Assembly: GCA_964490725.1 (NCBI GenBank)
Contig: CAZBDU010000013.1
Span: 8,633-72,632, forward strand
DNA: 64,000 bases
Direction: 5' to 3'
Source: an uncultured Spirochaetaceae bacterium
Lineage (GTDB): Bacteria; Spirochaetota; Spirochaetia; SZUA-6; DRHE01
How positions within the stretch are numbered: the stretch's first letter is position 1; each line of letters begins with the position of its first letter. Below the pieces are notes generated by a model. The model was not told the origin of the DNA. It did no database searches and was given only the letters and a program-made list of their open reading frames with translations. The position numbers and the translations under genes are program-made. This document shows, piece after piece, positions 10,701 through 29,143 of the stretch.

Positions 10701-10955
10701 CCCTTCCTCCCACGCTGCAGGCTAGATACGGGCACAATATAGCGCGGAGGTCGCGGGTTGTCAATCGTGTGATTAAATCATTTGTTCGTAGGATTGCTTC
10801 CGGCCATCACGTCACCCGTCGTATGGTCGGGAGTAGGCGAGAAGTAGAGCCGACCCGTGGCTCCGTTGACAGCGTGTACCGAAGGTGCTACGATTTTCCC
10901 GGGTCGACGCACGGTCGGTGGAGACCGTTACAAGACGGAAATGGGAGGCAGATCC

Positions 10956-12047: not shown

Positions 12048-12117
12048 GCCGCCGGCCGGGTGGCCGGCAGCAGAGAGGCAGCGCGTGGAGCAGGCGCAAG
12101 AGCCAGGAGCTGGAGAG

Positions 12118-13071: not shown

Positions 13072-14121
13072 TCAGCCGGCCGTCCTCGCGTGGTGAGGGG
13101 GTCCCGACTCCTGGGCGTAGCGGACCTCCGCAAGCCTCCTCCTGGCGGCGAAGCTCTTCACCACCTCATCGGCCCCGACACCCACTAGGATGACGAAACC
13201 GACCACGGCGAACTCCAGGGTCGTGGCGATGCCCAGGATGTTGATGGCGTTGTACAGCACCCGCACGATTGCGGTCCCGATGATCACCCCCAGGATGTTC
13301 CCTTCCCCTCCCTTCAGACTGACCCCGCCGACTACGCAGCCGGCGATGGCGTACAGCTCGTACATGTTCCCGGCCGTGGAGGGCTGGACCGTGTTCAGGT
13401 CCAGGGAGAAAAGGATGCCGGCGAACCCGGCGCAGGTGCTGGAGATGACGTAGGCGATGATGGTCATGCGGTCGGTGTTGATGCCGCTGAAGCGCGCGGC
13501 CTTCTCGTTGCGGCCCAGCGCCAGGATGTACCGCCCGTAGACCGAGCGATTCAGGAACACCGCCAGGATGATGCCGATGGCGATCAGAATGAGAAAGGGC
13601 ATCGGAAAGGACCAGTCAACCAGAAACCGGGGCGCCTGCCCCTGGGGCCAGAACGCCGAAGGGATCCTGCCGTGGGCCAGGAACTTCAACCCGGCGAAGC
13701 CGTTGCCATAGCCCTGGGTCACGTCCTGCATGGAAAAGCGGGCCATCCCGCGGTAGATGAACAGCCCGCAGAGGGTCACCACGAAGGGCTGCATCTTGAT
13801 CTTGGTGACCAGCAGCCCGTGGACGATCCCCATCAGGACCGACAGTCCCAGGCAGAGGAGAATGACGGGAACCACCGGCCACCCGCGCATGCGGATGAAG
13901 TGTGCGGACAGGGCGCCCACCAAACCCACGATGGAACCGACGGAGAGATCGATGCCGCCGGTCATAATCACGAAGGCCTCCCCCAGGCTGAGCAGCCCGA
14001 ACAGCCCGGACCAGCGCATGATGTTCATCAGGTTGTACCCCCCGATGAAGCTGGGATCGATGAGCGAGGTGATCATCATGACCACGGCCAGCAGCACCGC
14101 AATTCCGGCTATTCTCTTCAT
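13072..14121 (-). CDS. CUT2-family (ribose-type) sugar ABC transporter permease
   Basis: 349 aa. RbsC-like: GLFGLLSLGEAFVIMTGGIDLSVGSIVGL.., ALGRNEKAARFSGINTD. Confidence 0.9.
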   Translation of the reverse strand: MKRIAGIAVLLAVVMMITSLIDPSFIGGYNLMNIMRWSGLFGLLSLGEAFVIMTGGIDLSVGSIVGLVGALSAHFIRMRGWPVVPVILLCLGLSVLMGIVHGLLVTKIKMQPFVVTLCGLFIYRGMARFSMQDVTQGYGNGFAGLKFLAHGRIPSAFWPQGQAPRFLVDWSFPMPFLILIAIGIILAVFLNRSVYGRYILALGRNEKAARFSGINTDRMTIIAYVISSTCAGFAGILFSLDLNTVQPSTAGNMYELYAIAGCVVGGVSLKGGEGNILGVIIGTAIVRVLYNAINILGIATTLEFAVVGFVILVGVGADEVVKSFAARRRLAEVRYAQESGPPHHARTAG

Positions 14122-14145: not shown

Positions 14146-15654
14146 CTACTTCCCCCCGGTGGCCAGGTTGACCACCGCTTCCTCGCTGAACTGCTCCTTG
14201 TGCAGCTCTCCGCTGATCGCACCCTCGTGCATCACCAGGATCCGATCCGCAATGCCCAGCACCTCCTGCATCTCGCTGGAGATCACCAGGTTGGCGACCC
14301 CCTCCGCCGCCAGGCGCTCCATCAGACGGTAGATTTCCTCCTTGGCGACGACGTCGATGCCCCGGGTCGGCTCGTCCAGCAGGAGCACCCTGGGATTCAG
14401 GGAAAGCCACTTGCCCAGCACCACCTTTTGCTGGTTGCCGCCCGAGAGGGACTCCACCAGCTGGTCGATGCTGCGCAGGCGTACGTCCAGCCTCTGCACC
14501 ATCTGCCTGGCCAGGTCTCGCACCTCATCGAAGCGGATCATCTTGAGTGTCTGATGGCGGCCGAGACCGGCGAGGGTGATGTTCGGTTCCACGGCCATCT
14601 CCACGATCAGCCCGTGGAGCTTCCGGTCTTCCGGCACCAGGATGATCCCGTGGCTTATGGCGTCCTGCGGGCCGGTGATGCGGACCGGCTCGCCGTCCAG
14701 GAGAACCGTACCCGAAAGAGGGCTCTCGATGCCGAAGAGGGCGTGGGCCAGCTCGGTCCTGCCGGCTCCGACCAGTCCCGCCAGAACCAGGATCTCTCCC
14801 GCATGGACGGCGAAGCTGATCGGAACCCCGGGATGCCGCGCAAGGACCAGGTCGCGCACCTCGAGAACCGGACGGCCGACGAACTCATGCTCCTTGTGGT
14901 AGAACTTCTCGATGTCCCGGCCCACCATCAGCTTCACCATCTTCTCGTGGCTTATCTCCTGCAGGCTCAGGTGGCCGGAGACACAACCGTCGCGAAGCAC
15001 GACCACCCTGTCCGCCACCTCCTTCACCTCGCCCAGGCGGTGGGAGATGTAGATGATGCTCACTCCCTGAGACCGCAACTCCTCGATGACCTTGAACAGC
15101 CTCTCCGCCTCCGAGCGGGAAAGGCTGCTGGTCGGCTCGTCGAGAATCAGGATCTTCGAGTTGATGGACAGGGCCTTGGCGATCTCCACCAGCTGCTGGC
15201 TGCCGATGGCCAGGTGCCGGACAAGCACCTTCGGAGAGCAGTGCATGTCGATCCGGCTGAGGATTCTCTCCGTGTCCTCGTAGATCTTCCTGCGGTCCAC
15301 AAGACGCAGGAGCCCTCTCTCCCGCGGCTCCCGCCCGAGGAACACGTTGGCGCCCACGTCCAGGTTGTCCGAAAGGTTAAGCTCCTGATGGACGAAGGCG
15401 ATCCCCAGGCTGGTCGCCACCTGCACCGAAGGGATGCGTACCTCCTGGCCGTCCAGAACGATTGTGCCGGCGTCCGGCTCGTACACTCCCCCCAGGATCT
15501 TGGCGAGGGTGCTCTTGCCCGCGCCGTTTTCCCCGATGATCGCCAGGATCTCGCCCCGGTGCAGCCGGAGGCTGACATTGTCCAGTGCTTTGACTCCGGG
15601 GAAGAACTTGGTGACGCCGCGCATCTCCAGCAGGCAGGACCTGCCTCGCTCCAT
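14146..15654 (-). CDS. Sugar ABC transporter ATP-binding protein with two fused NBDs (RbsA-like)
   Basis: Two Walker A motifs (GENGAGKST, GLVGAGRTE), Walker B motifs (ILILDEPT, VLLLDEPT) and signature LSGGNQQK. Start placed at the internal ATG (MERGRS..LEMRGVTKFFPGVKAL); the track ORF extends to 15768. Confidence 0.92.
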   Translation of the reverse strand: MERGRSCLLEMRGVTKFFPGVKALDNVSLRLHRGEILAIIGENGAGKSTLAKILGGVYEPDAGTIVLDGQEVRIPSVQVATSLGIAFVHQELNLSDNLDVGANVFLGREPRERGLLRLVDRRKIYEDTERILSRIDMHCSPKVLVRHLAIGSQQLVEIAKALSINSKILILDEPTSSLSRSEAERLFKVIEELRSQGVSIIYISHRLGEVKEVADRVVVLRDGCVSGHLSLQEISHEKMVKLMVGRDIEKFYHKEHEFVGRPVLEVRDLVLARHPGVPISFAVHAGEILVLAGLVGAGRTELAHALFGIESPLSGTVLLDGEPVRITGPQDAISHGIILVPEDRKLHGLIVEMAVEPNITLAGLGRHQTLKMIRFDEVRDLARQMVQRLDVRLRSIDQLVESLSGGNQQKVVLGKWLSLNPRVLLLDEPTRGIDVVAKEEIYRLMERLAAEGVANLVISSEMQEVLGIADRILVMHEGAISGELHKEQFSEEAVVNLATGGK

Positions 15655-15806: not shown

Positions 15807-16859
15807 CTATTTTACCTCGAAGAACTCACCCACGGCCAGCTGCTTGTTCAGGGTCTCCATGAAAGCGTCGACCTTGTCCTTGGTGATGTAGCGGGCAGGA
15901 ACATCCACAAGCTTGTCCGCGGGGATGCCCGCATCCTGGCCGCTGATGATCTTGTACAGCAGCTCGACGCTGGTGCGGCCGTACTCGTAGGGGTTCTGCA
16001 CGATGGTGCCCGCCACGTAGCCATCCTTGATGGCCTGGAGGACGACCACCTCCTCGTCGAAGCCGATGATCTTCATGGTGCCCAGCTTGCCGGCATCCTG
16101 CACGGCGCTGATGATGGCCGGGGTGTTGTAGCTCCACAGGCCGATCATCAGGTCGAGGTCGGGGTACTTCACCAGGATGTCCTCGGCGTTCCCTTTGGCG
16201 CGGCTCTCGTCGCCGCCGTCGGTGCGGGTGTCCAGGATGGTCCACTGCCCGCAGTCAACCCTGCCCTGGGGGGTCATCTCTCCGGGATACTGGGCGGCGT
16301 AGGGCTTGCCCTGCAGCTCATCGATGATCCCCTGGCGGCGCTCCACGGCGTTCTGCGCGTCCAACCTGCCCACGAAGATCACGAGCTTGCCTCCGGCGGG
16401 CAGCTGTTCCTTGATCTTCTGCCCGGCCAGCCGACCGGCGGCATAGTTGCTCATCCCCACGTAGGCCCGCCGGTTGCTCTTGGGCGCGTCGCTGTCGAAC
16501 ATGACCACCGGTATCTTGGAGCCGATTTCATTCAGGAAGGGAGTCATGTTGTCCGGGTCGATGACGCTGATGGCCAGCCCGTCGATTCCCTTGGCCATCT
16601 GCGTCTCGATGAACCGCTTCTGCTCTTCCAGAGTGGCGCTGGGAGGCTTGTAGAAGTTCACCCTGACGCCGAACTCCTGCTCCGCCTTGAGGCAGCCGGC
16701 ATGAGCATAGGTCCAAAACGTGTACGGTCCGTTGGACACGTAGGCGATGTTGATCTGCTTCTGGGCCGCTGTCTCGGGTGTGCCCCCGGCCCACAGGGTG
16801 CCCATCCCCGCGAGCACCAGGAGGAGAAGTGTCCAAGAGAGGAACTTCCTCAGGTTCAT
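15807..16859 (-). CDS. Sugar ABC transporter periplasmic substrate-binding protein (RbsB-like)
   Basis: MNLRKFLSWTLLLLVLAGMGTLWAGG signal peptide. Periplasmic-binding-protein type I fold features. AAGGAGG SD 7 nt upstream of the ATG at 16859. Confidence 0.9.
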   Translation of the reverse strand: MNLRKFLSWTLLLLVLAGMGTLWAGGTPETAAQKQINIAYVSNGPYTFWTYAHAGCLKAEQEFGVRVNFYKPPSATLEEQKRFIETQMAKGIDGLAISVIDPDNMTPFLNEIGSKIPVVMFDSDAPKSNRRAYVGMSNYAAGRLAGQKIKEQLPAGGKLVIFVGRLDAQNAVERRQGIIDELQGKPYAAQYPGEMTPQGRVDCGQWTILDTRTDGGDESRAKGNAEDILVKYPDLDLMIGLWSYNTPAIISAVQDAGKLGTMKIIGFDEEVVVLQAIKDGYVAGTIVQNPYEYGRTSVELLYKIISGQDAGIPADKLVDVPARYITKDKVDAFMETLNKQLAVGEFFEVK

Positions 16860-16928: not shown

Positions 16929-16944
16929 AGCAAGAATCATGCCA
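16929..16944 (-). promoter_or_regulatory. Sigma54 (-24/-12) promoter of the binding-protein/ATPase/permease operon
   Basis: The minus strand reads TGGCATGATTCTTGCT, against the consensus TGGCAC-N5-TTGCW. It lies about 70 nt upstream of the ATG at 16859, and a sigma54 activator is encoded divergently. Confidence 0.65.
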
Positions 16945-17009
16945 CAAGACGGAGGCATGACCCTGCAATCCCTTGAAGCGCAAACAGTTAAACCATGGCC
17001 CTGGCTTCC

Positions 17010-17037
17010 TTGACAGGGGAGCCCGCCCCTGTATAAT
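17010..17037 (+). promoter_or_regulatory. Consensus sigma70 promoter (TTGACA-16 nt-TATAAT) for the response-regulator/kinase operon
   Basis: Read directly: TTGACA at 17010-17015 and TATAAT at 17032-17037. A second TATAAT lies at 17063-17068. Confidence 0.55.
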
Positions 17038-17077
17038 TGTTGTACATGCGATCACCCCCGTGTATAATCAGGATACA
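17030..17077. promoter_or_regulatory. Two TGT-N11-ACA dyads (TGTATAATTGTTGTACA, TGTATAATCAGGATACA), candidate enhancer (UAS) sites for the NtrC-type activator
   Basis: Dyads at 17030-17046 and 17061-17077, centres 31 bp apart, starting 86 nt upstream of the -24 element. The same motif and geometry recur at 29096-29143. Confidence 0.5.
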
Positions 17078-17080
17078 CAG

Positions 17081-18415
17081 GTGAAGCCACAAGTCCTGGT
17101 CGTCGACGACAAGATCAAGGTCTGCGAGAGCCTGGCCCAGAATTTCAGGCAGCTCGGGTACGAATGCCACGCGGCCACGAGCTCCGGCGAGGCGATCCAC
17201 ACTTTTCTGGACCACAAGATCAACACGGTGATCCTGGACATCAGGCTGGGCAATGACGACGGGATCGAGCTGCTGAAACAGCTGCAGAATCTCAACGGCA
17301 AGGTGCCGGTTATCATGATCACCGCTTACGGTACCATCGAGTCAGCGGTGGAATCCATCAAGCTCGGCGCCTTCGACTTTCTTCAGAAGCCAATCAACTT
17401 CGACAAGCTGGTGAAGGTGGTGGAGAATGCCATCAGGATGAATGTCCTGGAGGAGGAGAACCACAGGCTCAAGCGCAAGCTCTTCGATTTCTCCTCCAGG
17501 CTGGTCACGCAGAACAGGGAGATGATCGAGCTGTGCCGCAAGGCAAAGCAGCTGGCCGCCACAGAGCTGCCAATCTTGATCTGCGGGGAAAGCGGCACAG
17601 GGAAGGAGCTGCTGGCCGACTTCATCCATTCTCATTCCGCTCAGTCGTGCAACGAGATCATCAAGATCAATTGCTCCGCCTTCGCCGAATCCCTGCTGGA
17701 CAACGAGCTGTTCGGCCACGAGAAAGGGGCCTACACAGGGGCGGATTCTACCTTCCGGGGCGTGTTCGAGAGAGCGAACAACGGGACCCTCTTTCTGGAT
17801 GAGATCGGTGACATGCCCCTGCCCATCCAGAGCAAGATACTGCGCACTCTGCAGAACAAGGAGATTCGCAGGGTCGGCGGCAACAATACCATCAGGATCA
17901 GCGTTCGTTTCATAGCGGCCACAAACAAGAACCTCCAACAACTGATCGCAGAGGGAAGATTCCGGGACGACCTCTTTTACCGCCTGAACGCCGCCACCCT
18001 GACCATCCCTCCCCTGAGAGAGCGCAGGGAGGACATTCCGCTGCTAACCCGACACTTCCTGAACGACTTCCGGGCCCCGAGCTCGGACAGGCCGAAGACT
18101 CTCGCCAGAGAGGTTCTGGGGATTTTCCTGGATTGCGACTGGCCAGGGAACATCCGCGAGCTGAAGAACACTCTGCAGTACGCCGCCACCGTTTCGCTGA
18201 AGGACACCATTGACATCTGCGACCTGCCTCCCGGGTTCAACCACACCAGCAACGAAGGCGCGCCCCAGAATATCAGGGAGAAGATGGAGAGAGACCTGAT
18301 CGTGAGCATGCTCGCCAGGACCGGCTACAACAAGAAGCGGGCGGCGGAATTGCTCGGCATGAGCCGCAAGACGCTCTATAACAAGCTGGAAAGGTATGGC
18401 ATCCTCTGCCCGTGA
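17081..18415 (+). CDS. Sigma54-dependent response regulator (NtrC family: receiver + AAA+ + Fis-type HTH)
   Basis: VKPQVLVVDDK..DIRLG receiver domain. Walker A GESGTGKELLA. GAYTGA (GAFTGA-type sigma54 contact loop). C-terminal HTH KRAAELLGMSRKTLYNKL. GTG start chosen; the track ORF begins at 16973. Confidence 0.92.
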   Translation: MKPQVLVVDDKIKVCESLAQNFRQLGYECHAATSSGEAIHTFLDHKINTVILDIRLGNDDGIELLKQLQNLNGKVPVIMITAYGTIESAVESIKLGAFDFLQKPINFDKLVKVVENAIRMNVLEEENHRLKRKLFDFSSRLVTQNREMIELCRKAKQLAATELPILICGESGTGKELLADFIHSHSAQSCNEIIKINCSAFAESLLDNELFGHEKGAYTGADSTFRGVFERANNGTLFLDEIGDMPLPIQSKILRTLQNKEIRRVGGNNTIRISVRFIAATNKNLQQLIAEGRFRDDLFYRLNAATLTIPPLRERREDIPLLTRHFLNDFRAPSSDRPKTLAREVLGIFLDCDWPGNIRELKNTLQYAATVSLKDTIDICDLPPGFNHTSNEGAPQNIREKMERDLIVSMLARTGYNKKRAAELLGMSRKTLYNKLERYGILCP

Positions 18416-20252
18416 GGGCGGCAGCAACACCCTTCTCGAGCTCCAGAACGTCAATCTCTACTACGACACCCTCAAAGTCCTCAAGGATATCAACATCAGG
18501 ATCAACCGATCCGAGGTCCATGCCATCGTCGGGGAGCACGGGGCAGGCAAGACCTCCCTGTGCATGATCCTGAGCGGCTTCCTCAGGCCCTACTCGGGCA
18601 AGCTCATCCTGGAAGGGAAGACCTGCGATTCCCTGTCGCCCAGAAAGGCCCTCACCGCCGGCATCGAGCTCGTGACTCAGCACAATCCGGTGGTCGACAA
18701 CTTCAGCGTTGCGGAGAACCTTTATCTGGACAACCGCGGGGTCTCCAGCTATCCGTTCATCAACCGCAGAAAGTACCTGGAGATGGCGCAGGCCAGCCTC
18801 GAGGCGCACGGGTTCGCCATCCGTCCCGAGGCGGTGCTGCGAAACATGAAGCTCTCCGACCGGGTGCTGGTCGACATCCTGAAGCATCTGGTAAACCGGC
18901 CGCGGCTTCTGATCCTGGACGAGGCCCTCCAGAAGCTCACCGCGCCAAACTGCGCGAAGATGATCCAGCACCTGAAGGAGCTGAAAAAGGCGGGCATGTC
19001 GATCATCTTCGTCACCCACCGCATCGACGACATCTACAACTTCGCCGACAAGGTGTCCATTCTCAGAAACGGCGAGATCCTGATCACCGATTCCGTCAGC
19101 AACATCGACAAGATCAATCTCATCAAGCTCGCCTACACCCAGATCAGCAGCGACGAGGAGCTGGAGAACGCCAACCAGGAGTTCTACCACCTGCTCAAGT
19201 ACAACGAGGCCGTCCTCAAACAACTGCCTGTGAACCTGGTGGTTGTGGACCGCAACAACAGCATCAAGCTGATCAACGAGTACGCCAAGAAGTACTTCGA
19301 GATCGAGGAGACCAACTACCTGAACACGCCGGTCCGCGAGCTGTTTTCTTTCGAGAATCGGGCGGCCTTCGATTTGCTGCAGGGCGGCCTGTCCAGCAGG
19401 AACAGCGAGACCTTCTACGGCATCACCCTGAACAGGAACGGAGTGGAGTCGATCACCAACATCAAGACCCATCCGATCTACGACGAGTCTTTCCGCATCG
19501 GCTACTACATCATTGTCGAAGACATTACGGAGCGCGAAAAGCTGCGCGAGCAGGTGATCCTGTCGGAGAAGCTTGCCTCCGTCGGGCTGCTGTCAGCCGG
19601 TGTGGCCCATGAGATCAACAACCCGCTGGAGATTATCTACAACTATGTCCGCTACCTGAAGTTCCACACCGCGAGCCAGGAGATCCGTGCCACGGTGAAC
19701 AGCCTGGAGGAGGAGCTCAAGTCCATCTCGCAGATCGTCAGCAACCTGATCTCCTTCTCTGACAGCAGCAAGAACCTGGTCGAGCAGGTGGATGTCAACG
19801 AGCTGATCGCGAGTATCCTCAACCTGGTCGAGTACAATGCCAGGTACCGGCGCATCTTCATCCACTTCCATAGGAAAGCCGATCCGCTTCCCCTCCGGAT
19901 CAACAAGACCGAGATGAAGCAGGTCATCCTCAACCTGATCAAGAACAGCTTCGAGGCCATGCCCTCGGGCGGGCACCTGACGGTCGCCACGGGCAGGCGC
20001 AAGCAGGGCGAAACGCGGCTCGTGGAGATCGTCTTCCAGGACACCGGCTGCGGGATCGGAGACCGCAAGGTGAACGACATCTTCCTGCCTTTCTACTCCA
20101 CAAAGAAGGACGGGCACGGCAACCTGGGTCTGGGTCTCTCGGTGAGCTACGGGATCATCAGAAAATACCACGGTACGATCACCGTCCGCAATCGCGACGG
20201 CGCGGGTTGCGAGTTCACCATCCGGGTTCCCCAGGCTCAGCTCGGCCGCTGA
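18396..20252 (+). CDS. Soluble sensor histidine kinase with N-terminal ABC-transporter NBD (NBD-PAS-HisKA-HATPase_c)
   Basis: 618 aa. aa ~13-247 are RbsA-N-half-like: Walker A GEHGAGKTS, Q-loop VTQH, degenerate signature LSDRVLV, Walker B LLILDEA, H-loop VTHR. A PAS-like region spans aa ~262-375. H-box GVAHEINNPL has its His codon at 19608-19610. N/G boxes are LIKNSFEAM, DTGCGI and GLGLSVS. No transmembrane segment. Overlaps the response-regulator stop by 20 nt. Confidence 0.85.
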   Translation: MASSAREGGSNTLLELQNVNLYYDTLKVLKDINIRINRSEVHAIVGEHGAGKTSLCMILSGFLRPYSGKLILEGKTCDSLSPRKALTAGIELVTQHNPVVDNFSVAENLYLDNRGVSSYPFINRRKYLEMAQASLEAHGFAIRPEAVLRNMKLSDRVLVDILKHLVNRPRLLILDEALQKLTAPNCAKMIQHLKELKKAGMSIIFVTHRIDDIYNFADKVSILRNGEILITDSVSNIDKINLIKLAYTQISSDEELENANQEFYHLLKYNEAVLKQLPVNLVVVDRNNSIKLINEYAKKYFEIEETNYLNTPVRELFSFENRAAFDLLQGGLSSRNSETFYGITLNRNGVESITNIKTHPIYDESFRIGYYIIVEDITEREKLREQVILSEKLASVGLLSAGVAHEINNPLEIIYNYVRYLKFHTASQEIRATVNSLEEELKSISQIVSNLISFSDSSKNLVEQVDVNELIASILNLVEYNARYRRIFIHFHRKADPLPLRINKTEMKQVILNLIKNSFEAMPSGGHLTVATGRRKQGETRLVEIVFQDTGCGIGDRKVNDIFLPFYSTKKDGHGNLGLGLSVSYGIIRKYHGTITVRNRDGAGCEFTIRVPQAQLGR

Positions 20253-21334
20253 GGCCCCTGCGGGATCGCGGAGGCCCGAGAGGCAGGCGGCCTTTTCCCG
20301 CGGGTGCGGCCCGCTCCCGTTCCGTGCTCGCCGATCGCTTCCGCCAGCCGTCGCCTCGCGGCGGCGGACTTGATCAGCTCCTCGGCGCTGGCCCCGAACA
20401 GGATGACCGATCCGACAATGGTGTACTCCAGGGTCGTGGAGATGCCCAGGATGTTGATCGCGTTGTACAGCACCCGCACGATCGCCGTGCCGATAATCAC
20501 CCCGGGCACCGAGCCTTCTCCGCCCCGCAGGCTCGCGCCTCCCACCACGCAGCCGGCGATCGCGTACAGCTCATACATGTTTCCGGCCGTGGAGGGCTGC
20601 ACCGTGTTGAGGTCCAGCGAAAAGAGGACCCCTGCCAGGCACGCGCAGGTTGCAGAAATGACGTAGGCAGCGATCTTGATACGATCCGTGTCCACCCCGC
20701 TGAAACGCACGGCCCTCTCGTTGCTGCCGATGGCCAGGATGCAGCGTCCGTACACTGAGCGCTCCAGGAAAAGCCAGAGGATGGCGCCCGCGAACAGCAG
20801 GATGAGGAAGGGCATCGGCAGCGACCATTCGGCCACCAGCAGCGGGGCGTTGCCCGCCGGCCAGAAGGCGGAGGGAAGGCGGCCGTTGGCCAGGAACTTG
20901 AGCCCCTGGAAGCCGCTTCCGTACCCCTGGGTGACGTCTCGCAGCGCGAAGCGCGCCAGTCCGCGGTAGATGAACAGCCCGCACAGGGTCACCACAAAGG
21001 GCTGCACCTTGACCTTGGTGACCAGCACTCCGTGCAGCAGCCCCATCAGGACCGCCAGGGTAAGACAGATGAGCAGGGCCGCGGCGATGGGCAGCCCGCG
21101 TACGGTGATGAAGTTGGCCGAGAGCCCGCCGATGAGCCCCACGATGGAGCCGACCGACAGGTCTATGCCCCCGGTCATGATGACAAAGGACACCCCCAGA
21201 CTGAGCAGGCCGAACAGGCCCGTCCAGCGCAGGATGTTCTTGACGTTGTAGGGGTTGATGAAGTCCGGGTCGACGATGGTTGTGAGCAGCATGGCGGCCA
21301 CCAGGACAACGCCAATCCCCGCCGCTCTTCTCAA
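20237..21334 (-). CDS. Second CUT2-family sugar ABC permease, paralog of 13072-14121, with no adjacent ATPase or binding protein
   Basis: Collinear with the first permease (GLFGLLSLGVSFVIMTGGIDLSVGSIVGL.., AIGSNERAVRFSGVDTD). TTG start 7 nt after GGAGGG; the track ORF extends to 21409. Its 3' end overlaps the kinase 3' end by 16 nt (convergent). Confidence 0.9.
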   Translation of the reverse strand: MRRAAGIGVVLVAAMLLTTIVDPDFINPYNVKNILRWTGLFGLLSLGVSFVIMTGGIDLSVGSIVGLIGGLSANFITVRGLPIAAALLICLTLAVLMGLLHGVLVTKVKVQPFVVTLCGLFIYRGLARFALRDVTQGYGSGFQGLKFLANGRLPSAFWPAGNAPLLVAEWSLPMPFLILLFAGAILWLFLERSVYGRCILAIGSNERAVRFSGVDTDRIKIAAYVISATCACLAGVLFSLDLNTVQPSTAGNMYELYAIAGCVVGGASLRGGEGSVPGVIIGTAIVRVLYNAINILGISTTLEYTIVGSVILFGASAEELIKSAAARRRLAEAIGEHGTGAGRTRGKRPPASRASAIPQGPQRPS

Positions 21335-21419
21335 GCGATTACCCTCCTGCCTTCGCTGGCGCTTCGGCGGGCCGCTTTCGGGCCGGGGGCGGACCCGGCG
21401 GCGGGCCACCGCAGGGCCC

Positions 21420-22049
21420 TCAGGCGAGGCGTTTCTTCACTGCCTCCTTCAGGCGGCTGTCCCGGATCGACTCCGGGTCCACCAACGCCTTCACCCCCGG
21501 GTATTCCAGGGCCGGGCGGACCACCTCCTCGGGGAGGGTCTCGATAATCTCGGCCAGGCTGCGGTGGGTCAGCCGGGAGACCCGTTCCAGGATGAGGCGC
21601 GCCTCGCGCTGCGGCTCCCTGCGGTGCTCCGGATAACCGGCGCCTCGCTCCACACTGAAGAGCCGATCGAAGATGAAGCGCAGGTTCACATCCCCGGCCC
21701 AGCCGTAGCCGCGGTTGAGGGCCAGGGAAACACAGTTGCCGCCGTTGATCTGCATGAACAGCCAGGCGTCGAGGGGGTCCAGCACGAGCCCGCAGAACAC
21801 CCCCGGATACTGCATGATCGAGCTCAGGAAGCCCTGGCCCGTGCCGCAGCCACCGACGACGAAGTCCGCCCGCTTGAGCTCCAGCAGCACCGCTGCGATC
21901 AGGCCGGTGTGGACGTAGAGCAGCTCGGGCTTCGCTCCCCGCTCCCTCATACCGGCGTTGATGACCTGGTGGCCGCGTCCCTCGAGAGCGGCCAGGATGT
22001 CCGCGTTCTTGTCCGCGGCGCTGGTCTCGCTGACCACTGCTATCCTCAC
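21420..22049 (-). CDS. RpiB/LacA/LacB family sugar-phosphate isomerase (long ~210-aa form)
   Basis: VRIAVVSETSAADKNADIL..DFVVGGCGTGQGFLSSIMQYPGV.. GTG start after GGGAGGG. It forms the C-terminal part of track ORF 21420-23642. Confidence 0.8.
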   Translation of the reverse strand: MRIAVVSETSAADKNADILAALEGRGHQVINAGMRERGAKPELLYVHTGLIAAVLLELKRADFVVGGCGTGQGFLSSIMQYPGVFCGLVLDPLDAWLFMQINGGNCVSLALNRGYGWAGDVNLRFIFDRLFSVERGAGYPEHRREPQREARLILERVSRLTHRSLAEIIETLPEEVVRPALEYPGVKALVDPESIRDSRLKEAVKKRLA

Positions 22050-23624
22050 GGCACCCTCCCGGCCGGGGTCTGCGGCCGGCCTGTCCCGCGGGTCTCGACC
22101 CGGCCCGTCCCGTTCACCTCCCTGGCCCAGCCCAGGCAGCGCTGCACTGCCTTGTTCCATCCGCGGTAGAGGGCTTGCCGGCGCTCCTCGCTCATGGCGG
22201 GCTCGAAGCGGCGGTCCAGCCGCCAGTGGGCCGCCACTTCCTCCCTGCTGCCCCAGAAGCCGACACCGAGGCCCGCCAGGTAGGCGGCGCCACGGGCTGC
22301 CATCTCCGTCACCGAGGGCCGCTCCACCGGGATTCCCAGCACGTCCGCCTGGAATTGCATCAGGAAGTCGCTGCGGCTCGCACCTCCGTCCACTCTCAGG
22401 GAGTCCGCCTGCCTGCCCGAATCGGCGCTCATCGCGTCCAGCACGTCCCGGGTCTGGTAGGCCATGGATTCCAGGCTCGCCCGGGCAATGTGCTCCCGGC
22501 CTGTCCCGCGGGTGATGCCGACGATAAGGCCCCGGGCGTACATGTCCCAGTAGGGGGCGCAGAGGCCGGTGAAGGCGGGCACCACATACACCCCTCCGGT
22601 GTCCTCCGCCTGAGCGGCCAGCCGGGTGCAGCCCTCCGCGTCCTCGACGATCCTCAGGCCGTCCCGCAGCCACTGCACCGCCGCCCCTCCGATGAACACC
22701 ACCCCTTCCAGAGCATACTCGGTCTTTCCATTGACGTGCCAGCCGAGATCCGTGGTCAGGCCGTGTGCGGACAGCATGGGGGTCTGGCCAATGTTCATCA
22801 TCAGCGCCAGGGCAGTGCCGTAGGTGTTCTTCGCCATCCCCGGCCTGAAGCAGTTCTGCCCGAAGGTGGCGGCGTGCTGGTCCCCGGCCGCGCCGGCTAC
22901 CGGGATCTCCGCTCCGAAGAAGACCATCCGGTCGGTGGTGGCCAGCACGCCGCTGGAGGAAAGGGGGGTGGGCAGGATCTCCTCGGGTATCTCCAGAGCC
23001 GCCAGGAGCTCCGCGTCCCACTGCAGCGTGTGGATGTTCAGCAGCATCGTCCGCGAGGCGTTGGAGAAGTCGGTCACGTGCGCCCTCTGGCCGCTCAGGT
23101 TCCAGATGAGCCAGGAATCGATGGTCCCCATGCAGATCTTGCCCCGGGCGATCCTCTCTCTCACTTCCGGCACGTTGTCCAGGATCCACCGGATCTTGGT
23201 TGCCGAGAAGTAGGCGTCGATCAGAAGGCCGGTCCTCTCCCGCACCAGCGGCTCCAGCCCCTTGGCCTTGAGCTCGTCGCACAGCGCCGCGGTGCGACGG
23301 CACTGCCAGACGATGGCGTTGTACACCGGCCGGCCGCTGTCCCTGTCCCAGAGGATCGTGGTTTCCCGCTGATTGGTGATGCCGATCCCGGCGATCGCCT
23401 CGGCCTCCAGGCGGCCCTTCTCCAGCACCTCCCGGGTGCAGTCCATCACCGTTTCCCAGTACTCCCGGGGGTCCTGCTCCACCCAGCCCGGCTGCGGGTA
23501 GATCTGCCGGATCTCCCGGTAGGCCGAGGAGTGGATGTCCCCGTTGTGCCGGAAGAGGATCACCCGGGTCCCGGTGGTTCCCTGGTCGATGGCCATGATG
23601 AATCGCTTGTCCACGGCGTCCCCC
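22046..23624 (-). CDS. glpK: Glycerol kinase (FGGY family)
   Basis: FIMAIDQGTTGTRVILF, GWVEQDPREYW, GITNQRETTILWD, GAAGDQHAATFGQ, RVDGGASRSDFLMQFQADVLG. GTG start at 23624. About 25 aa of low-complexity C-terminal tail. Confidence 0.9.
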
Positions 23625-23634
23625 TCGTCTCCAG

Positions 23635-24615
23635 TTAGCCACGCTCCAGGAGCGTCTCCCGCAGCAGGTCGTAGAGACCGGTGATGTCTTCTCGCTCCTG
23701 GTAGCGGCGGATGGCCTCGCCGTCCAGTCTGTCGGCGAGCCTCTCCATGCTTTGCAGCATACGGATCGAAAGCCCCACGGCCTCGGCCGGATCCTCGCGG
23801 AAAGGGAACTGATCCATGATGATGTAGCCCTCGTAGCTGGACTGCTTCAGGTACCAGAGGTACTCCACGGTGCGCCAGAGGTTGACGGTGCCGGCGATCA
23901 GGTCGTCGTCGAACTCCCCGTAGGCGTCGTTGCCATGCACGTTGAAGAGCCGGCCCGCCCGGTCGAGCATGCACAGCGACTCGGCGGGGTTCTCCCGAGA
24001 CAGGAGGGCGTGGCCGAAATCGAGGGTGATGCCGAAGTTCTCCGCGCCCACGTCGTGAGCCAGAACGAGGGCTTTCCCGACGTTGGCTACCATCATGAAC
24101 ATGCGGGGCTCTTTCAGCTTGTACTCGTAGGAGAAGCGCAAGTCGGGAGCGTACGCGGCGATCTCCCTGATGGCCTCCACGGTGGAGCTCCACATCGCGT
24201 TGTAGTCCCCCTGGAAGCAGTAGTCGTGTCCGTCCTGGCCCGGCCACATGTCGATGAGCCGGAAGCCCATCTCCCGGGCCGCATCGGCTCCCTTCTTCAC
24301 GGTGTCCACCGCCTTCCGGTAGGTCTTTCTGTCCCTGCTGGTGAAGGCGCCGTACTTGTACCGCGGGGCGAACAGGGCCATGTTCATGGCCTGCATCTCA
24401 AGCCCGCTGTCGCGGATGATCGCGGCCACCTCCCTGACCTGCAGCCCCTCGAAGTCACTCGGGTAGTGGATCTGGATCGCCTCCAGCCCCTTGACACGGG
24501 CTGCCGTTCGCACCTGCTCGCGGAAGCTCTGCGCAGGCCGATAGCCCCCCGGGATGAACCGGTCGGCCGTAAACCCGATGGTCCACAGTCCCGCTCCGAA
24601 CCTGAGCCTTTTCAT
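23635..24615 (-). CDS. Sugar phosphate isomerase/epimerase, xylose-isomerase-like TIM barrel
   Basis: 326 aa. AP_endonuc_2-type pattern (..IQIHYP.., WPGQDGHDY, EYKLKEPR, ITLDFGHALL, NVHGNDAYGEFDDDL). GAAGGAGG SD. Confidence 0.8.
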   Translation of the reverse strand: MKRLRFGAGLWTIGFTADRFIPGGYRPAQSFREQVRTAARVKGLEAIQIHYPSDFEGLQVREVAAIIRDSGLEMQAMNMALFAPRYKYGAFTSRDRKTYRKAVDTVKKGADAAREMGFRLIDMWPGQDGHDYCFQGDYNAMWSSTVEAIREIAAYAPDLRFSYEYKLKEPRMFMMVANVGKALVLAHDVGAENFGITLDFGHALLSRENPAESLCMLDRAGRLFNVHGNDAYGEFDDDLIAGTVNLWRTVEYLWYLKQSSYEGYIIMDQFPFREDPAEAVGLSIRMLQSMERLADRLDGEAIRRYQEREDITGLYDLLRETLLERG

Positions 24616-24688
24616 GTTGCGCCCTCCTTCTTCTCCACCTTCTGCACGCGGAACCGGCCGCAGGGCTCCCCGCGGCGGCCCCCAGGGG

Positions 24689-24939
24689 CTACTCCGGCAG
24701 CGGCTCCCCTGGAAAGAACATCACCTTGTTGAACGCCTGCTCCCTGCGGTGCATCAGAACTGGTGGCCGATGGTCGTCGGGTGGCGGTAGGTGCCCGTGA
24801 GCATGACCCGGGGAATGTCCGAGCCGCAGACGCCGCAGGCCTTGACCCGCACGATGAGCTCGCCTTCCCTCTCGATCTGCGGGGCCTCCGTGTGCACACA
24901 CCGCAGGTCCCCGGGCGCAAAGAGCCCGACCGCCCTCAT
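24689..24939 (-). pseudogene. Deletion remnant of a zinc-dependent (MDR) polyol/alcohol dehydrogenase
   Basis: MRAVGLFAPGDLRCVHTEAPQIEREGELIVRVKACGVCGSDIPRVMLTGTYRHPTTIGHQF then TGA. About 20 nt later, in another frame, ..REQAFNKVMFFPGEPLPE-stop resembles an MDR C-terminus. Roughly 270 internal codons are missing. Confidence 0.65.
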
Positions 24940-24995
24940 TGTTTCTGGCTCCACGAATCTGGCTCTCCCCCGTCTGCCCGGCGGCAACCGGCTGC

Positions 24996-25274
24996 TCAGC
25001 CGCCGGCCACCATCTGCAGGAGCATCACCTCCTGATCTTCCCGCAACGCGGTGCGGAGCTCCTTCACCGGACGGCCGTCCACGATGATGATCACCGAGGC
25101 CGCTGGCTTCCTACCCTGCCGATCCCAGAACTGCCCGGGGACGGCGGCCGCCCAGCGCTCGTCGATCAGTTTCATCAGGCTCTGAAGCGTGGAGCCTTCC
25201 GGCAGCTCCATCCGGTGGGTCTGCTCGCCGAGAAAGCCCGCCAGCGCCCCGAGGGCGCGCAGCCTGATCTTCAT
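24996..25274 (-). CDS. MoaD/ThiS-family ubiquitin-like small protein (C-terminal GG)
   Basis: 92 aa, ending ..VMLLQMVAGG. Lies immediately downstream of the AOR gene. Confidence 0.75.
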   Translation of the reverse strand: MKIRLRALGALAGFLGEQTHRMELPEGSTLQSLMKLIDERWAAAVPGQFWDRQGRKPAASVIIIVDGRPVKELRTALREDQEVMLLQMVAGG

Positions 25275-25283
25275 GGGCGGCCC

Positions 25284-27143
25284 TCACTGCGCGTAAAGAT
25301 CGGCGGCGGCATCCTCGAGGCCCAGCTCCAGCAGGACCGCCCGGCTCGGCCTGCCGTCCGCCTCCCAGCGGCGCAGCCGGTAGTACCGTTCCAGCTGGGC
25401 CGCCAGGTCCGGCACCTTGCCCGCCGCACCCCCTTCCTTCAGGGGGGTCATGGCCCGCACCGGCATGGTGTCATCCTCCCTCCGTATCCCGCAGCGCCAG
25501 TTGTACGCTCGATGCAGAGCGTTGATCCGGTCTCCGATGCACAGCAGGTCCTCTGGCCTCAGCGCGGAGCCGGTGGCCGCCTTCAGCAGGGCGCAGAAAT
25601 CCGAGGGCTTCAGCAGCACGGTGGCGAAATAGCACAGCACGAGAGAGTCCAGGACGTGGGCCCAGTTTTGGGCGAAGCGAGTCATCTCCGCCTTTCCGGT
25701 GTCGCTCAACCGCGTGTATGTGCCCGTGAACCCCCACTCCGGGATCGGGTTCTCCCCCTCTTCGTAGAGGTCCGTCATACCATGCAGATGGCAGCCTCCC
25801 CGGGAAGCGGTGGCGTAGTTGGAGGCCCACGCGAACCCGGCCCGCGCGTCGTGCATGGGAAGCTCCAGGCCCTTGACCTGCACCGCCCACTCCTTCGAGC
25901 CTCCCCCCAGCTTCTGCGCCAGCCTCCTGGTGCCCAGTCCCAGGAGCCTTCCCGCCCCTTCGCCTCGGCCGATCTTTTCGATCATACGGATCAACGCCTC
26001 CGCGCTGCCCCAGCGCAGCTCGATCCCATCCAGATCCTGGCTGGCGAGCAACCCCTTCTCGACGCATTCCATGGCAAAGGCCAGGGTGGAGCCGGTGCTG
26101 ATCGCATCCAGGCCGTAGAGGTTGCAGAGATGGTTGGCGTAGCAGACCGCCCGCACGTCCAGCACCATGCAGAGGGTTCCCAGCGCCGCCGTGCTCTCAT
26201 ACTCCGGGCCGGGAGCGTCCATCCTGTAGGGACCCTCCTCGATGCGGGTCCAGCGAGCGCAGCCGATGGTACAGCGGTGGCAGGCGGAGTGTCTCCTGGG
26301 CATGAGCTCGTAGATTCTCCGCCCTCCAATGGCCGTGCACACCGCTTCGGTGGAGCCCACCGACCAGTTCTTCACCGGGATGTCGCTGATCGCCCAGCGG
26401 CTGTCCAGCACGTCCGCCGTGCCGTACTTCCTGAGCGCCTCCAGGTCAGGGTCCGTGGCGTTGCGCCGGTTGATCGCCCGGGCCAGCTCCGTGAAGCCCT
26501 CCGGGTCGGCCAGCTGCACCTCCGCCGAGCCCCGCACCGCGATGGCCTTCAGCCGCTTGGCGCCCATGACCGCCCCGCCGCCGCCCCGGGCCGCCGCCCG
26601 GGCGTCGTCGTTGAGGATGGCACTGTACAGCACCCCCTTCTCCCCGGCCGGGCCGATCACCGCCACCCTGACCCCGCGCTGGCCTATCTCTTGCCTGATA
26701 TCCTCCTGGGCCGCGAAGGTGTCCTTACCCCAGTGTTGTGAGGCAGCGCGAATCTCCGCCTTCCCCTCCTCGACGTACAGATACACCGGCTCCGACGCGG
26801 CCCCTTCCACGACCAGCCCGTCGTAACCTGCCCTGCGGAGCGCCGTTCCCCAGTGTCCGCCAGAGCTGGAGTCGCAGAGCATCTCGGTCAGGGGGGCCTT
26901 GAAAACCACCTGGTAGCGCCCAGAGGTGCCCAGGGAGGTGCCCGTGACCGGTCCGGTCATGAACAGGAGCCTGTTCTCCGGCCCCAGCGGATCGGCCTCC
27001 GGAGGGATCTCGTCATAGGCCAGCCGGATTCCCATCCCGGAGCCCCCAATGTAGTTCCTGGCGTGCTCCGGTGAGACAGGCTCCTCGGCGATCCTCCCGG
27101 AGCCGAGATTCACCCGCAGCAGCTTTCCCATGTAGCCCTTCAT
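25284..27143 (-). CDS. Tungsten-type aldehyde:ferredoxin oxidoreductase (AOR family)
   Basis: 619 aa. MGKLLRVNLGSG..YIGGSGMGIRL..FMTGPVTGT N-terminus. 4Fe-4S Cys motif CHRCTIGC. AAGGAGG SD. Confidence 0.92.
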   Translation of the reverse strand: MKGYMGKLLRVNLGSGRIAEEPVSPEHARNYIGGSGMGIRLAYDEIPPEADPLGPENRLLFMTGPVTGTSLGTSGRYQVVFKAPLTEMLCDSSSGGHWGTALRRAGYDGLVVEGAASEPVYLYVEEGKAEIRAASQHWGKDTFAAQEDIRQEIGQRGVRVAVIGPAGEKGVLYSAILNDDARAAARGGGGAVMGAKRLKAIAVRGSAEVQLADPEGFTELARAINRRNATDPDLEALRKYGTADVLDSRWAISDIPVKNWSVGSTEAVCTAIGGRRIYELMPRRHSACHRCTIGCARWTRIEEGPYRMDAPGPEYESTAALGTLCMVLDVRAVCYANHLCNLYGLDAISTGSTLAFAMECVEKGLLASQDLDGIELRWGSAEALIRMIEKIGRGEGAGRLLGLGTRRLAQKLGGGSKEWAVQVKGLELPMHDARAGFAWASNYATASRGGCHLHGMTDLYEEGENPIPEWGFTGTYTRLSDTGKAEMTRFAQNWAHVLDSLVLCYFATVLLKPSDFCALLKAATGSALRPEDLLCIGDRINALHRAYNWRCGIRREDDTMPVRAMTPLKEGGAAGKVPDLAAQLERYYRLRRWEADGRPSRAVLLELGLEDAAADLYAQ

Positions 27144-28141
27144 CTCACCCCTCCTTTGCGCTTCTTGTCTCTCGCGAGAACGGTCCGGCGGCCTTCATCT
27201 GCCCCTCTCCTGTGCACTTCTTTTTTCTCAAGGGCCTCCCGGGCGGCCCGGGCGATATCTTGCGGACCCAGGCCGCAGAAGTCCCACAGGCTCTCCGGAT
27301 CAGGGCCGGTACAGACGAAGGTATCCCGGATACCTACCGGAACCGCCGGCGTGGGCCTCTCCCGGCTCAGCGCCTCGGCTACGGCGCCGTAGAGCCCCCC
27401 GACGATCGAGTGCTCCTCCACTGTGACCAACGCTCCCGTCTCTGCGGCAGCGCGGAGGACCAGCTCTCTGTCCAGGGGCTTGAGGGTGTGGATCTCCAGC
27501 ACTCGGGCGGAGATCCCCTCCCGCTCGAGCAGCTCGGCAGCCTCCAGGCTGCGGTGCACGGCAATTCCGGTAGCCACCAGGGTGAGGTCTCTGCCCTCCC
27601 TGAGCGGGCGCCCTTTGCCGATCTCCACGGCGCTATTCCGGCCAGGAACCGTCGGAACATCCGCCCGGCTGATGCGCAGGTACACCGGGCCGGGGTACTC
27701 CGCAACGGCTGGAATCAACTCCTTCAGCTCCGCGCCGTCGGTGGCGGTGACCACCGTCATGTTGGGCATGGCCCTCATGACGGCCAGATCGAACACCGAG
27801 TGATGGGTGGGACCGTCTTTGAAATCGGACACCCCCGCATAACCGGCCAGCAGCTTGACGTTGGCGCGGTTGTAGGCCACGCAGGTACGGATTTGCTCCA
27901 ACCCCCGGTAGCAAAGCATCGCAGCGAAGGCGCTGACGAAAGGGATCTTGCCGGCCAGGGCCATCCCCACCGCCGTGTCGATCATCCCGGGCTCGGCGAT
28001 CCCGACATTGAAGAACCGCTCCGGGTGCGCCTCGCGGAACAGGATGGTCATGGTGGAGTTGGAGGCATCCGCATCCAGAACCACTACGTTGCCGTTCAGG
28101 TGTCCGTAGTCCGCCAGGGCCCGGCCTAGCTCCTTCCTCAT
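27140..28141 (-). CDS. Transketolase, C-terminal (pyrimidine-binding) subunit
   Basis: MRKELGRALADYG..FFNVGIAEPGMIDTAVGMALAGKIPFVSAFA..GPTHHS.. ATGA overlap with the N-terminal subunit gene. Confidence 0.9.
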   Translation of the reverse strand: MRKELGRALADYGHLNGNVVVLDADASNSTMTILFREAHPERFFNVGIAEPGMIDTAVGMALAGKIPFVSAFAAMLCYRGLEQIRTCVAYNRANVKLLAGYAGVSDFKDGPTHHSVFDLAVMRAMPNMTVVTATDGAELKELIPAVAEYPGPVYLRISRADVPTVPGRNSAVEIGKGRPLREGRDLTLVATGIAVHRSLEAAELLEREGISARVLEIHTLKPLDRELVLRAAAETGALVTVEEHSIVGGLYGAVAEALSRERPTPAVPVGIRDTFVCTGPDPESLWDFCGLGPQDIARAAREALEKKEVHRRGADEGRRTVLARDKKRKGGVR

Positions 28142-28994: not shown

Positions 28995-29010
28995 AGCAAG
29001 AAATGTGCCA
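28995..29010 (-). promoter_or_regulatory. Sigma54 (-24/-12) promoter of the transketolase-AOR-glpK-permease operon
   Basis: The minus strand reads TGGCACATTTCTTGCT, a perfect TGGCAC-N5-TTGC, and is 13/16 identical to the element at 16929-16944. The -12 GC is only ~16 nt from the ATG at 28980. Confidence 0.6.
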
Positions 29011-29095: not shown

Positions 29096-29143
29096 TGTAT
29101 AACTCTTATACAAACCAGCCTGGCTGTGTACAATACCGCTACA
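29096..29143. promoter_or_regulatory. Two TGT-N11-ACA dyads (TGTATAACTCTTATACA, TGTACAATACCGCTACA), candidate UAS sites
   Basis: Dyads at 29096-29112 (perfect 7-3-7 palindrome) and 29127-29143, centres 31 bp apart, starting 86 nt upstream of the -24 T. This is the same geometry as at 17030-17077. Confidence 0.5.

Follow-up and report, generated by a model that had tools for sequence, protein, structure and literature searches.

A family of soluble histidine kinases with an N-terminal ABC-transporter nucleotide-binding domain as probable input module, encoded beside CUT2 sugar transporters

In the PhoR-PhoU-PstSCAB and MalK-MalT systems, the nucleotide-binding subunit of an importer relays transporter activity to transcriptional control; there the nucleotide-binding domain (NBD) belongs to the working transport ATPase, and the contacts are noncovalent (through the PhoU adaptor, or through sequestration of MalT). 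Such co-sensing by "trigger transporters" is known from a few studied systems; in these the kinase is a protein distinct from the transporter, and where the two touch is difficult to establish. In Firmicutes, the histidine kinase BceS senses through the ATP-binding cassette (ABC) transporter BceAB (PMC9169098, PMC3023708, PMC7438565), and the kinases CbrA and CrbS carry a fused SLC5 solute-symporter domain (PMC7096432, PMC5715377). Here we analyzed a 64,000-nucleotide stretch of DNA from an uncultured Spirochaetaceae bacterium (contig CAZBDU010000013.1; the whole stretch is called the window below), in which a two-component system with a sigma54-dependent response regulator lies beside a sugar ABC transporter of the CUT2 class, and in which the sensor kinase itself begins with an ABC NBD. 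This architecture is real, conserved and tied to CUT2 sugar ABC transporters.

The original prediction, made from the DNA letters, had proposed a single 618-aa open reading frame (ORF) with the domain order NBD-PAS-HisKA-HATPase and no transmembrane helix, and both proposals were borne out. Pfam returned four domains, all at or above their gathering scores: ABC_tran (PF00005; residues 29-178, E = 5e-20, 72.9 bits against a gathering score of 25), PAS_4 (residues 274-381, 29.7 bits against 23.1), HisKA (PF00512; residues 398-456, 35.5 bits) and HATPase_c (PF02518; residues 505-614, 71.4 bits). The same scan of the kinase found no SLC5 (SSSF) or STAC domain. The highest Kyte-Doolittle mean over 19 residues was 1.26, versus 2.7 in the neighbouring permease. 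The motif coordinates (Walker A GEHGAGKTS, VTQH, LLILDE, VTHR, LSDRVLV and the His405 codon) were also correct, and the kinase ATG does overlap the stop of the regulator gene by 20 nt. Residues H405, N513, N517, D549, G551, G553, G578 and G580 (the H, N, G1 and G2 residues) are 99-100% conserved in the kinase family, and by every criterion tested the protein is a HisKA-class kinase.

Each half of the protein has its own set of known counterparts. Among NCBIfam models, residues 13-260 matched only the N-terminal halves of the CUT2 sugar ATPases YtfR, LsrA, AraG and RbsA (E 1e-37 to 1e-44), and residues 260-614 were AtoS/ZraS-like. No NCBIfam equivalog cut-off was reached (238 bits against 646 for AtoS, 151 against 479 for ZraS and, with profile positions 1-247 of 492 covered, at best 152 against 850 for the CUT2 ATPases), and no curated NCBIfam model fits the architecture. 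In an AlphaFold2 monomer model, the NBD, PAS, DHp and catalytic ATP-binding (CA) domains were confident (mean pLDDT 74.5), while the pTM of 0.41 makes their mutual arrangement unreliable. Foldseek matched the N-terminal half to MJ1267, LptB, MalK and MetN and the C-terminal half to YF1 (4gcz), ThkA and ZraS, and found no solved chain in the PDB that spans both halves.

Among the best 120 relatives listed from a search of 5.8 billion proteins, identity to the window kinase was 48-71% across 97-100% of its length, and PF00005, PF00512 and PF02518 occurred together in nearly all of them. Relatives come from Spirochaetota, KSB3/Moduliflexota (Moduliflexus, Vecturithrix) and many metagenomes and uncultured lineages; one Spirochaetaceae metagenome-assembled genome (MAG) carries a relative at 67% identity. 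At least 222 full-length relatives with the same uninterrupted architecture were obtained from independent assemblies. Furthermore, when the NBD-PAS fragment (residues 140-395) was used as a junction query against 1.84 billion cluster representatives (50% identity clusters), 103 clusters were found at E <= 1e-30, and ~140 of the best 150 representatives were 600-625 aa long with the junction in the same place, down to ~25% identity. The window kinase has the traits that define the family: a length of ~600-625 aa, GEHGAGK(S/T), LS(D/E)(R/Q), an AYTQ linker helix, a PAS domain and a kinase core. An assembly or frameshift artefact, or a decaying pseudogene, is excluded to near certainty by the 222 or more relatives, the conserved junction helix and the intact catalytic residues; NBD and kinase are thus one ORF, as first proposed, and not an assembly join. 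No evidence in favor of an artefact was found, although the G+C content of the regulator-kinase pair as a whole (0.57) is below that of its flanks (0.64-0.67). Source databases name these proteins "ATP-binding cassette domain-containing protein" or "histidine kinase", or give them composite COG-style labels. No description of an ABC-NBD/histidine-kinase fusion was found in NCBIfam, the PDB or the literature (the coverage of which was incomplete), consistent with the original prediction, which knew of no characterized example.

Gene context was compared across 94 loci (nine annotated contigs, six genome loci and 79 metagenome loci), typed with hidden Markov models built from the annotated components. 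The genome scan used the full-length alignment and was dominated by the generic kinase pattern (six full-length loci), and the metagenome scan used an NBD-only alignment; a locus was taken as well covered when it reached 6 kb or more upstream of the kinase and 4 kb or more downstream (n = 35). In 77 of the 80 informative loci, the gene immediately before the kinase encodes the sigma54 regulator. All 35 well-covered loci contain a CUT2 ATPase and a permease, as do all 13 of the first set. In the usual layout (62 loci), a divergent operon encoding a periplasmic sugar-binding protein (SBP), the ATPase and a permease stands beside the regulator, and a few loci have the transporter downstream. The kinase was never the sole NBD gene beside a permease among the loci with enough flank; the suggestion that it acts "in place of" the transport ATPase therefore fails as a general rule, a complete transporter with its ATPase being found in every well-covered locus.

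The genes around the kinase are far less uniform than the kinase itself. Compared with the window, kinase NBDs are 44-53% identical and regulators 48-58%, whereas SBPs are at most 28% identical or undetectable outside the closest clade. Catabolic genes also vary by locus (AraA-like, xylose-isomerase-like TIM barrel, GFO/IDH/MocA, glycerol-3-phosphate-dehydrogenase-like, SGL lactonase, transketolase and FGGY kinases), and the transported substrates evidently differ between loci. In particular, one Spirochaetota MAG (locus L025, 4980-11824) holds two regulator/NBD-kinase pairs back to back, each with its own SBP-ATPase-permease operon; the two kinases are 45% identical and the two binding proteins 32%. 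Both L025 kinases have the Walker A motif GEHRAGKS, with Arg for Gly at the fourth position.

Since the family always stands beside CUT2 transporters, the kinase probably reads the transporter rather than the sugar. This agrees with the transporter-coupled sensing put forward in the original prediction, in favor of which are the CUT2 link in all 35 well-covered loci, the lack of any membrane or periplasmic part in the kinase, and a conserved NBD-PAS module facing variable SBPs and catabolic genes. Three arguments place the source of specificity in contact with the transporter: i) a cytoplasmic kinase cannot see a periplasmic sugar; ii) a conserved NBD-PAS module is implausible as the recognizer of many different substrates; iii) paralogous systems within one genome, as in L025, must stay specific. 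We regard it as an even call that these proteins are sigma54-type two-component kinases which sense through a transporter and delegate specificity to it.

Alternatively, the PAS domain could be the real sensor, of an intracellular sugar derivative or of a common downstream metabolite, the NBD being an ATP-dependent accessory that stabilizes the dimer or tethers the kinase. Small-ligand binding is common, and well established, among PAS domains; here such a domain is present, with 9/118 columns at least 90% conserved, and the kinase gene lies between the transport and catabolic operons. But invariant PAS residues are shared by systems with different SBPs and catabolic enzymes, so that recognition of different substrates is unlikely, and a common metabolite could not separate the paralogous systems of one genome (L025). 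Moreover a PAS sensor would leave unexplained why the NBD core and its ATP site are conserved as strongly as the kinase core. We consider this explanation unlikely.

What the system controls can be predicted from the promoters. In the 64 kb, the pattern TGTRNN-N5-TATACA formed two clusters only (8 hits versus 0.36 expected), both upstream of sigma54 promoters; an earlier pattern with 8-nt spacing gave no hits, the correct gap between the hexamers being 5 nt. The CTGTCAAG box is conserved in related intergenic regions. Among relatives, the strict palindrome was found in 27/78 regulator-upstream regions, at 1.16 per kb versus 0.01 elsewhere (more than 100-fold), and a strict TGGYAY-N5-TTGC promoter pattern, directed at the transporter operon and away from the regulator, in 39/78. 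Because the enhancer motif and the sigma54 promoter layout are shared by the two operons, the two-component system is predicted to control both: it very probably drives the transporter and catabolic operons and autoregulates. The perfect sigma70-type promoter in front of the regulator also makes GTG 17081 (444 aa, as in relatives) its most likely start, instead of 16973. A G+C-rich hairpin, ACAGGGG-AGCCCG-CCCCTGT (17013-17032, plus strand), fills the spacer of that promoter and adjoins the first enhancer palindrome. A scan of the 64-kb window with Rfam returned no RNA family.

The kinase NBD is, on sequence comparison, derived from the first NBD (NBD1) of CUT2 (RbsA-type) ATPases: it is 29% identical to NBD1 of the neighbouring transport ATPase, with which it is collinear, and 20% identical to NBD2. 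Conservation counted over 222 full-length family members (Table 1) includes an A-loop aromatic residue at position 23 (76%), and comparison with cognate NBD1s indicated that all cis-acting ATP-site residues are retained in the kinase NBDs; half of the positions with 70% or more conservation in cognate NBD1s (36 of 72) have an unchanged majority residue there. On the other hand, the trans-acting elements that contact a partner NBD, namely the signature Gln and the D-loop Pro-Thr, are swapped for family-specific sequence: LSGGQ occurs in none of the 222 members (family consensus LS(D/E)(R/Q)xL(V/I)DILKH), and the D-loop Pro-Thr (98%/88% in transport NBD1) has become Ala-Leu. The degenerate signature noted in the original prediction (LSDRVLV) is real but not peculiar to the kinase. 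It is largely inherited, as the NBD1s of cognate CUT2 ATPases already lack LSGGQ (LAIGSQQ, LSLAETQ); their NBD2s have the consensus LSGGNQQK, a degenerate Walker A with arginine and no H-loop His.

The RecA-like core of the NBD equals the kinase catalytic domain in conservation. Nowhere in the protein is conservation higher than in the linker helix, NIDKINLIKxAYTQI (mean top-residue frequency 0.70; Y247 98%), and the most variable part of the NBD is its helical subdomain (residues 110-150), which is the part that touches the permease in ABC transporters. This pattern would fit an NBD that still binds ATP, forms no canonical homodimeric sandwich, has a partner-specific subdomain and relays its state through a rigid linker.

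An NBD acting as an ATP or energy sensor had been named as the alternative in the original prediction. It would sense ATP/ADP freely, with no transporter contact, and uptake genes would be tuned to energy charge. The intact Walker A, Walker B, Q-loop and H-loop and the loss of the dimer-forming signature fit binding without a transport cycle, and the protein is soluble. Such a generic sensor is countered by the CUT2 transporter at 35/35 well-covered loci and the origin of the NBD specifically from CUT2 NBD1, by a variable helical subdomain that tracks the permease, and by the coexistence of several paralogous systems per genome, each with its own transporter, which would all read one signal and so have no substrate specificity. 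We rate it as quite improbable; an NBD that does not dock would nevertheless be the first ABC NBD serving as the stand-alone nucleotide-sensing input of a two-component kinase.

Pairwise distances were then compared across 54 non-redundant systems by mirror-tree correlation and partial Mantel tests. The correlation with cognate permease distances was highest for the helical subdomain (r = 0.51), versus 0.38 for the NBD core, 0.37 for the C-terminal half of the kinase and 0.35 for the regulator. The helical subdomain remained correlated with the permease given the C-terminal half (r = 0.38, p <= 0.0005) and given the NBD core (r = 0.30, p <= 0.0005), while in the reverse test the NBD core given the helical subdomain was not (r = 0.10, not significant).

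Helical-subdomain divergence was also correlated with that of the transport ATPase (partial r ~0.31), which bears on a further explanation: that the NBD engages the ATPase by pairing with NBD2, or that the kinase competes with the ATPase and throttles uptake, information then passing from kinase to transporter. Apart from this correlation, the two domains are complementary, the kinase NBD having a complete Walker side and no signature, and NBD2 having LSGGNQQK with an arginine in Walker A and no H-loop His. Yet in nearly all loci NBD2 and its own NBD1 form one covalent chain, and a third NBD is unlikely to invade such a pair; similarity specific to the cognate partner was not detected; and a role in transport would not explain induction of the system. 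We give this explanation as little credence as sensing of energy charge, if not slightly less. At one locus (L084, 5832-7354), the cognate CUT2 ATPase is present as two genes (NBD1, 286 aa; NBD2, 221 aa), by a frameshift or a true split; if truly split, it bears on pairing of the kinase NBD with a free NBD2.

Sensing through the transporter would proceed as follows. The kinase dimer would present two NBDs, binding ATP via the intact Walker A, Q-loop, Walker B and H-loop, to the cognate transporter, most plausibly at the cytoplasmic coupling loops of the permease dimer and less likely at the transport ATPase. Docking of a sugar-loaded SBP on the permease would shift the position or closure of the NBDs, and this change would reach the DHp helices by way of the invariant linker helix and then the PAS domain, so setting kinase activity. 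The phosphorylated regulator would bind the TGTRNN-N5-TATACA enhancers, activate the two sigma54 promoters and probably repress its own sigma70 promoter; the adjacent CUT2 importer operon and the co-regulated catabolic operon would thereby be switched on, with substrate specificity residing in the binding protein and permease and not in the kinase. The architecture, the family, its conserved gene neighbourhood and the arrangement of promoters and enhancers are observed in the present data; that kinase and transporter touch physically, and in which direction the switch works, we infer.

Several observations weigh against sensing through the transporter: i) In a control with the 73 most variable columns of the C-terminal half (not entropy-matched), the correlation with the permease was r = 0.42 and the partial correlation 0.23-0.31, suggesting that the excess of the helical subdomain over fast columns is real but small and that much of the signal comes from fast columns generally; ii) Kinase NBDs are not closer to cognate than to non-cognate NBD1 (0.234 versus 0.227, p = 0.08), and thus nothing indicates that the two have converged on a common surface for docking; iii) The sequence searches returned no solved structure of a CUT2 ATPase or BPD_transp_2 permease on which an interface could be mapped; iv) A complete transport ATPase is kept in every well-covered locus, and therefore the kinase would have to compete for or share permease dimers; v) In an NBD homodimer lacking the consensus signature, canonical ATP-driven closure is doubtful; vi) The conserved PAS domain could itself bind a ligand. 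Overall, the co-divergence tests give weak to moderate support for the helical subdomain and the transporter being functionally linked. As a separate candidate, convergence of the kinase NBD with the cognate NBD1, or gene conversion between them, was tried and was not significant (p = 0.08).

The neighbours of the kinase are as first claimed, with SBP, double-NBD ATPase and permease (permease 1) on one side and a paralogous permease (permease 2) on the other, all identified by Pfam. The reading of permease 2 as an orphan without its own ATPase stands only in part: the paralogous permease is present, but it closes a long catabolic operon on the minus strand, which is headed by a separate sigma54 promoter with the same enhancer motif. 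Permeases 1 and 2 are 68% identical and form two orthologous groups in the clade where kinase identity is 67% or more (the window, L081, L087, L089, L091 and L094), consistently separated by the EAA coupling loop (GRNExAARFSG versus G(S/N)NExAVRFSG). In a second clade (L127, L129, L130 and L122), whose kinase NBD is 44% identical to that of the window, a paralogous permease also converges on the kinase 3' end; that permease pair is 49% identical mutually and 28-30% identical to the window pair, to which it is non-orthologous, and the duplications are therefore independent. In L127 the permease gene beside the kinase stands alone, and no canonical sigma54 promoter precedes it. This gene lies 5 nt from the kinase stop and is followed by a major facilitator superfamily (MFS) transporter and a group II intron reverse transcriptase/maturase (RVT_1 and GIIM) (7946-12613).

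The simplest reading is that permease 2 gives this transporter another membrane subunit, like that of the two-permease CUT2 systems L086, L125 and L150. As the defining partner of the family it was rejected, a permease occupying the kinase 3' position in 12/94 loci and the ATPase being present in every well-covered locus. Given its repeated placement beside the kinase gene, permease 2 may instead be a dedicated kinase partner. The kinase dimer might be the cytoplasmic half of an "ABC receptor", its NBDs occupying both NBD sites of a permease dimer with ATP bound and little or no transport. The partner could be a homodimer of permease 2, which abuts the kinase gene, in the window and would be a fraction of the ordinary permease dimers elsewhere, and periplasmic SBP docking would be relayed by the ABC coupling mechanism and read out as kinase activity. 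The hints are that a paralogous permease has come to lie beside the kinase twice independently (in one clade as a stand-alone gene), and that permeases 1 and 2 differ consistently in the EAA loop; we put the receptor forward as a tentative possibility. If true, it would be a new transmembrane signalling mode, with any CUT2 importer convertible to a sensor.

The features of the locus are collected in Table 1.

Table 1. Features of the NBD-kinase locus in the 64-kb window, grouped by protein, regulatory sites and neighbouring genes
Feature	Residues	Position	Strand	Evidence or remark
Sensor kinase gene, soluble, 618 aa: NBD - linker helix - PAS - DHp/HisKA - HATPase_c		18396..20252	+	ORF, Pfam
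ABC NBD, from NBD1 of CUT2 ATPases	13-247	18432..19136	+	NCBIfam N-terminal-half matches, NBD1 identity, fold
Walker A GEHGAGKTS		18531..18557	+	G46 99%, G51 98%, K52 97%, S/T53 98% (n = 222)
Q-loop glutamine Q95		18678..18680	+	87% (n = 222); 100% in 60 systems with transporter
Signature position, LSDRV for LSGGQ		18852..18866	+	collinear with degenerate NBD1 signature of cognate ATPases
Walker B LLILDE and altered D-loop, ALQ for PTS (DEALQKL)		18906..18932	+	D175 98%, E176 93% (n = 222)
H-loop histidine H208		19017..19019	+	82% (n = 222)
Linker helix NIDKINLIKLAYTQIS, NBD to PAS	236-251	19101..19148	+	homologous to helix after NBD1 in CUT2 ATPases
PAS domain	263-380	19182..19535	+	Pfam PAS_4; confident PAS fold in AlphaFold2 model; Foldseek match to YF1 (4gcz) PAS-kinase region
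Kinase core: DHp with H405 (codon 19608-19610) and catalytic ATP-binding domain		19536..20237	+	HisKA, HATPase_c
Sigma70-type promoter of regulator-kinase operon, TTGACA-16-TATAAT		17010..17037	+	12/12 consensus matches
Two enhancer palindromes TGTRNN-N5-TATACA, 31 bp apart		17030..17077	.	overlap -10 of regulator promoter
Sigma54 promoter TGGCATGATTCTTGC of SBP-ATPase-permease operon		16930..16944	-	~70 nt upstream of SBP ATG 16859
Second sigma54 promoter TGGCACATTTCTTGC, perfect, heads catabolic operon		28996..29010	-	
Second enhancer palindrome pair, 31 bp apart		29096..29143	.	90-130 bp upstream of second sigma54 promoter
Sigma54-dependent response regulator, REC - AAA+ - HTH_8		17081..18415	+	Pfam, NCBIfam; stop overlaps kinase start by 20 nt
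Periplasmic sugar-binding protein (SBP), Peripla_BP_4		15807..16859	-	Pfam 1.7e-59
CUT2 transport ATPase, two fused NBDs		14146..15654	-	Pfam ABC_tran x2; NCBIfam XylG/AraG/RbsA-like, E 1e-151 to 1e-164
Permease 1, BPD_transp_2		13072..14121	-	Pfam 8.5e-45
Permease 2, BPD_transp_2		20237..21409	-	Pfam 1.8e-45; convergent with kinase, 16-nt overlap of kinase 3' end
Catabolic operon ending in permease 2		21420..28980	-	Pfam; synteny with L081, L087, L089

The SBP starts at ATG 16859 (M34 of the longer frame), with a ribosome-binding site and a signal peptide, and not at 16958. The catabolic operon encodes a split transketolase, an aldehyde:ferredoxin oxidoreductase, a ThiS-like protein, a remnant of an alcohol dehydrogenase, a xylose-isomerase-like TIM barrel, an FGGY kinase and an RpiB-like isomerase. 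The transketolase occupies two genes (27140-28980, minus strand), one for the N-terminal thiamine-pyrophosphate-binding part (280 aa) and one for the pyrimidine-binding and C-terminal parts (~332 aa), and they open the operon behind the second sigma54 promoter. They are followed (25002-27143, minus strand) by a tungsten-type aldehyde:ferredoxin oxidoreductase (AFOR_N and AFOR_C, 619 aa) and a small ThiS/MoaD-like ORF, which are kept together in L081 and L087 and are unusual beside FGGY kinase, RpiB and transketolase. A 61-aa ORF (24757-24939, minus strand) matches only the N-terminal part of the syntenic zinc alcohol dehydrogenase of L081 (39% over 33 aa) and looks like a remnant of that enzyme; the relatives' gene at this place is full (320-350 aa). 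The G+C content of the regulator-kinase pair (16973-20252) is 0.56-0.58, versus 0.63-0.70 in the flanking transporter and catabolic genes, and could reflect horizontal origin or a constraint on composition.

In the NBD-kinases, a transporter-derived module is hard-wired into the kinase, in a family that is large and uniform in length and domain order and that brings transporter-coupled signalling within reach of direct tests. Should the NBD dock on the permease, the kinase would report the conformation of an ABC importer in a soluble and genetically simple form, and would be a natural case of transmembrane signalling through the ABC scaffold, of use in biosensor design with specificity set by the SBP.

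Compared with described systems, the C-terminal 360 aa (PAS-DHp-CA) and the NtrC-family partner match AtoS/ZraS/NtrB-type PAS-HisKA kinases, but the kinase is not orthologous to AtoS, has no membrane or periplasmic sensor and carries an N-terminal ABC NBD. Its first 250 aa are collinear with NBD1 and the following helix of the CUT2 ATPases (RbsA, XylG, AraG, YtfR, LsrA), with which they share Walker A and B, Q-loop and H-loop; unlike those ATPases, the kinase has one NBD, in which the signature Gln and D-loop Pro-Thr are replaced, and is fused to a kinase module. BceS and the present kinase both lack a ligand-binding sensor of their own, are thought to read the cognate ABC transporter and control that transporter's expression. 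However, BceS has two transmembrane helices with a minimal loop and contacts the permease BceB in the membrane, while the present kinase is a soluble protein with an ABC NBD of its own; BceAB confers peptide resistance and has a large extracellular domain, in contrast to the SBP-dependent CUT2 sugar importer of the window; and the output of BceS is an OmpR-type regulator, in place of a sigma54 activator. With CbrA and CrbS the kinase shares a covalently fused, transporter-derived input and control of carbon-source use via a sigma54-type regulator. There the module is a complete membrane-embedded secondary transporter plus STAC, whereas the module of the present kinase comprises just the cytoplasmic ATPase domain from a primary ABC transporter, and the membrane and periplasmic parts would come from separate proteins. 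Unlike the PhoR and MalT systems, a dedicated, non-transport copy of the NBD is built into the kinase. The kinase would thus work like BceS-BceAB, PhoR-PhoU-Pst co-sensing and CbrA/CrbS and yet belongs to none of these groups: the reading of a transporter by a two-component sensor is known in kind, and an ABC NBD as the input domain for it would be a new type.

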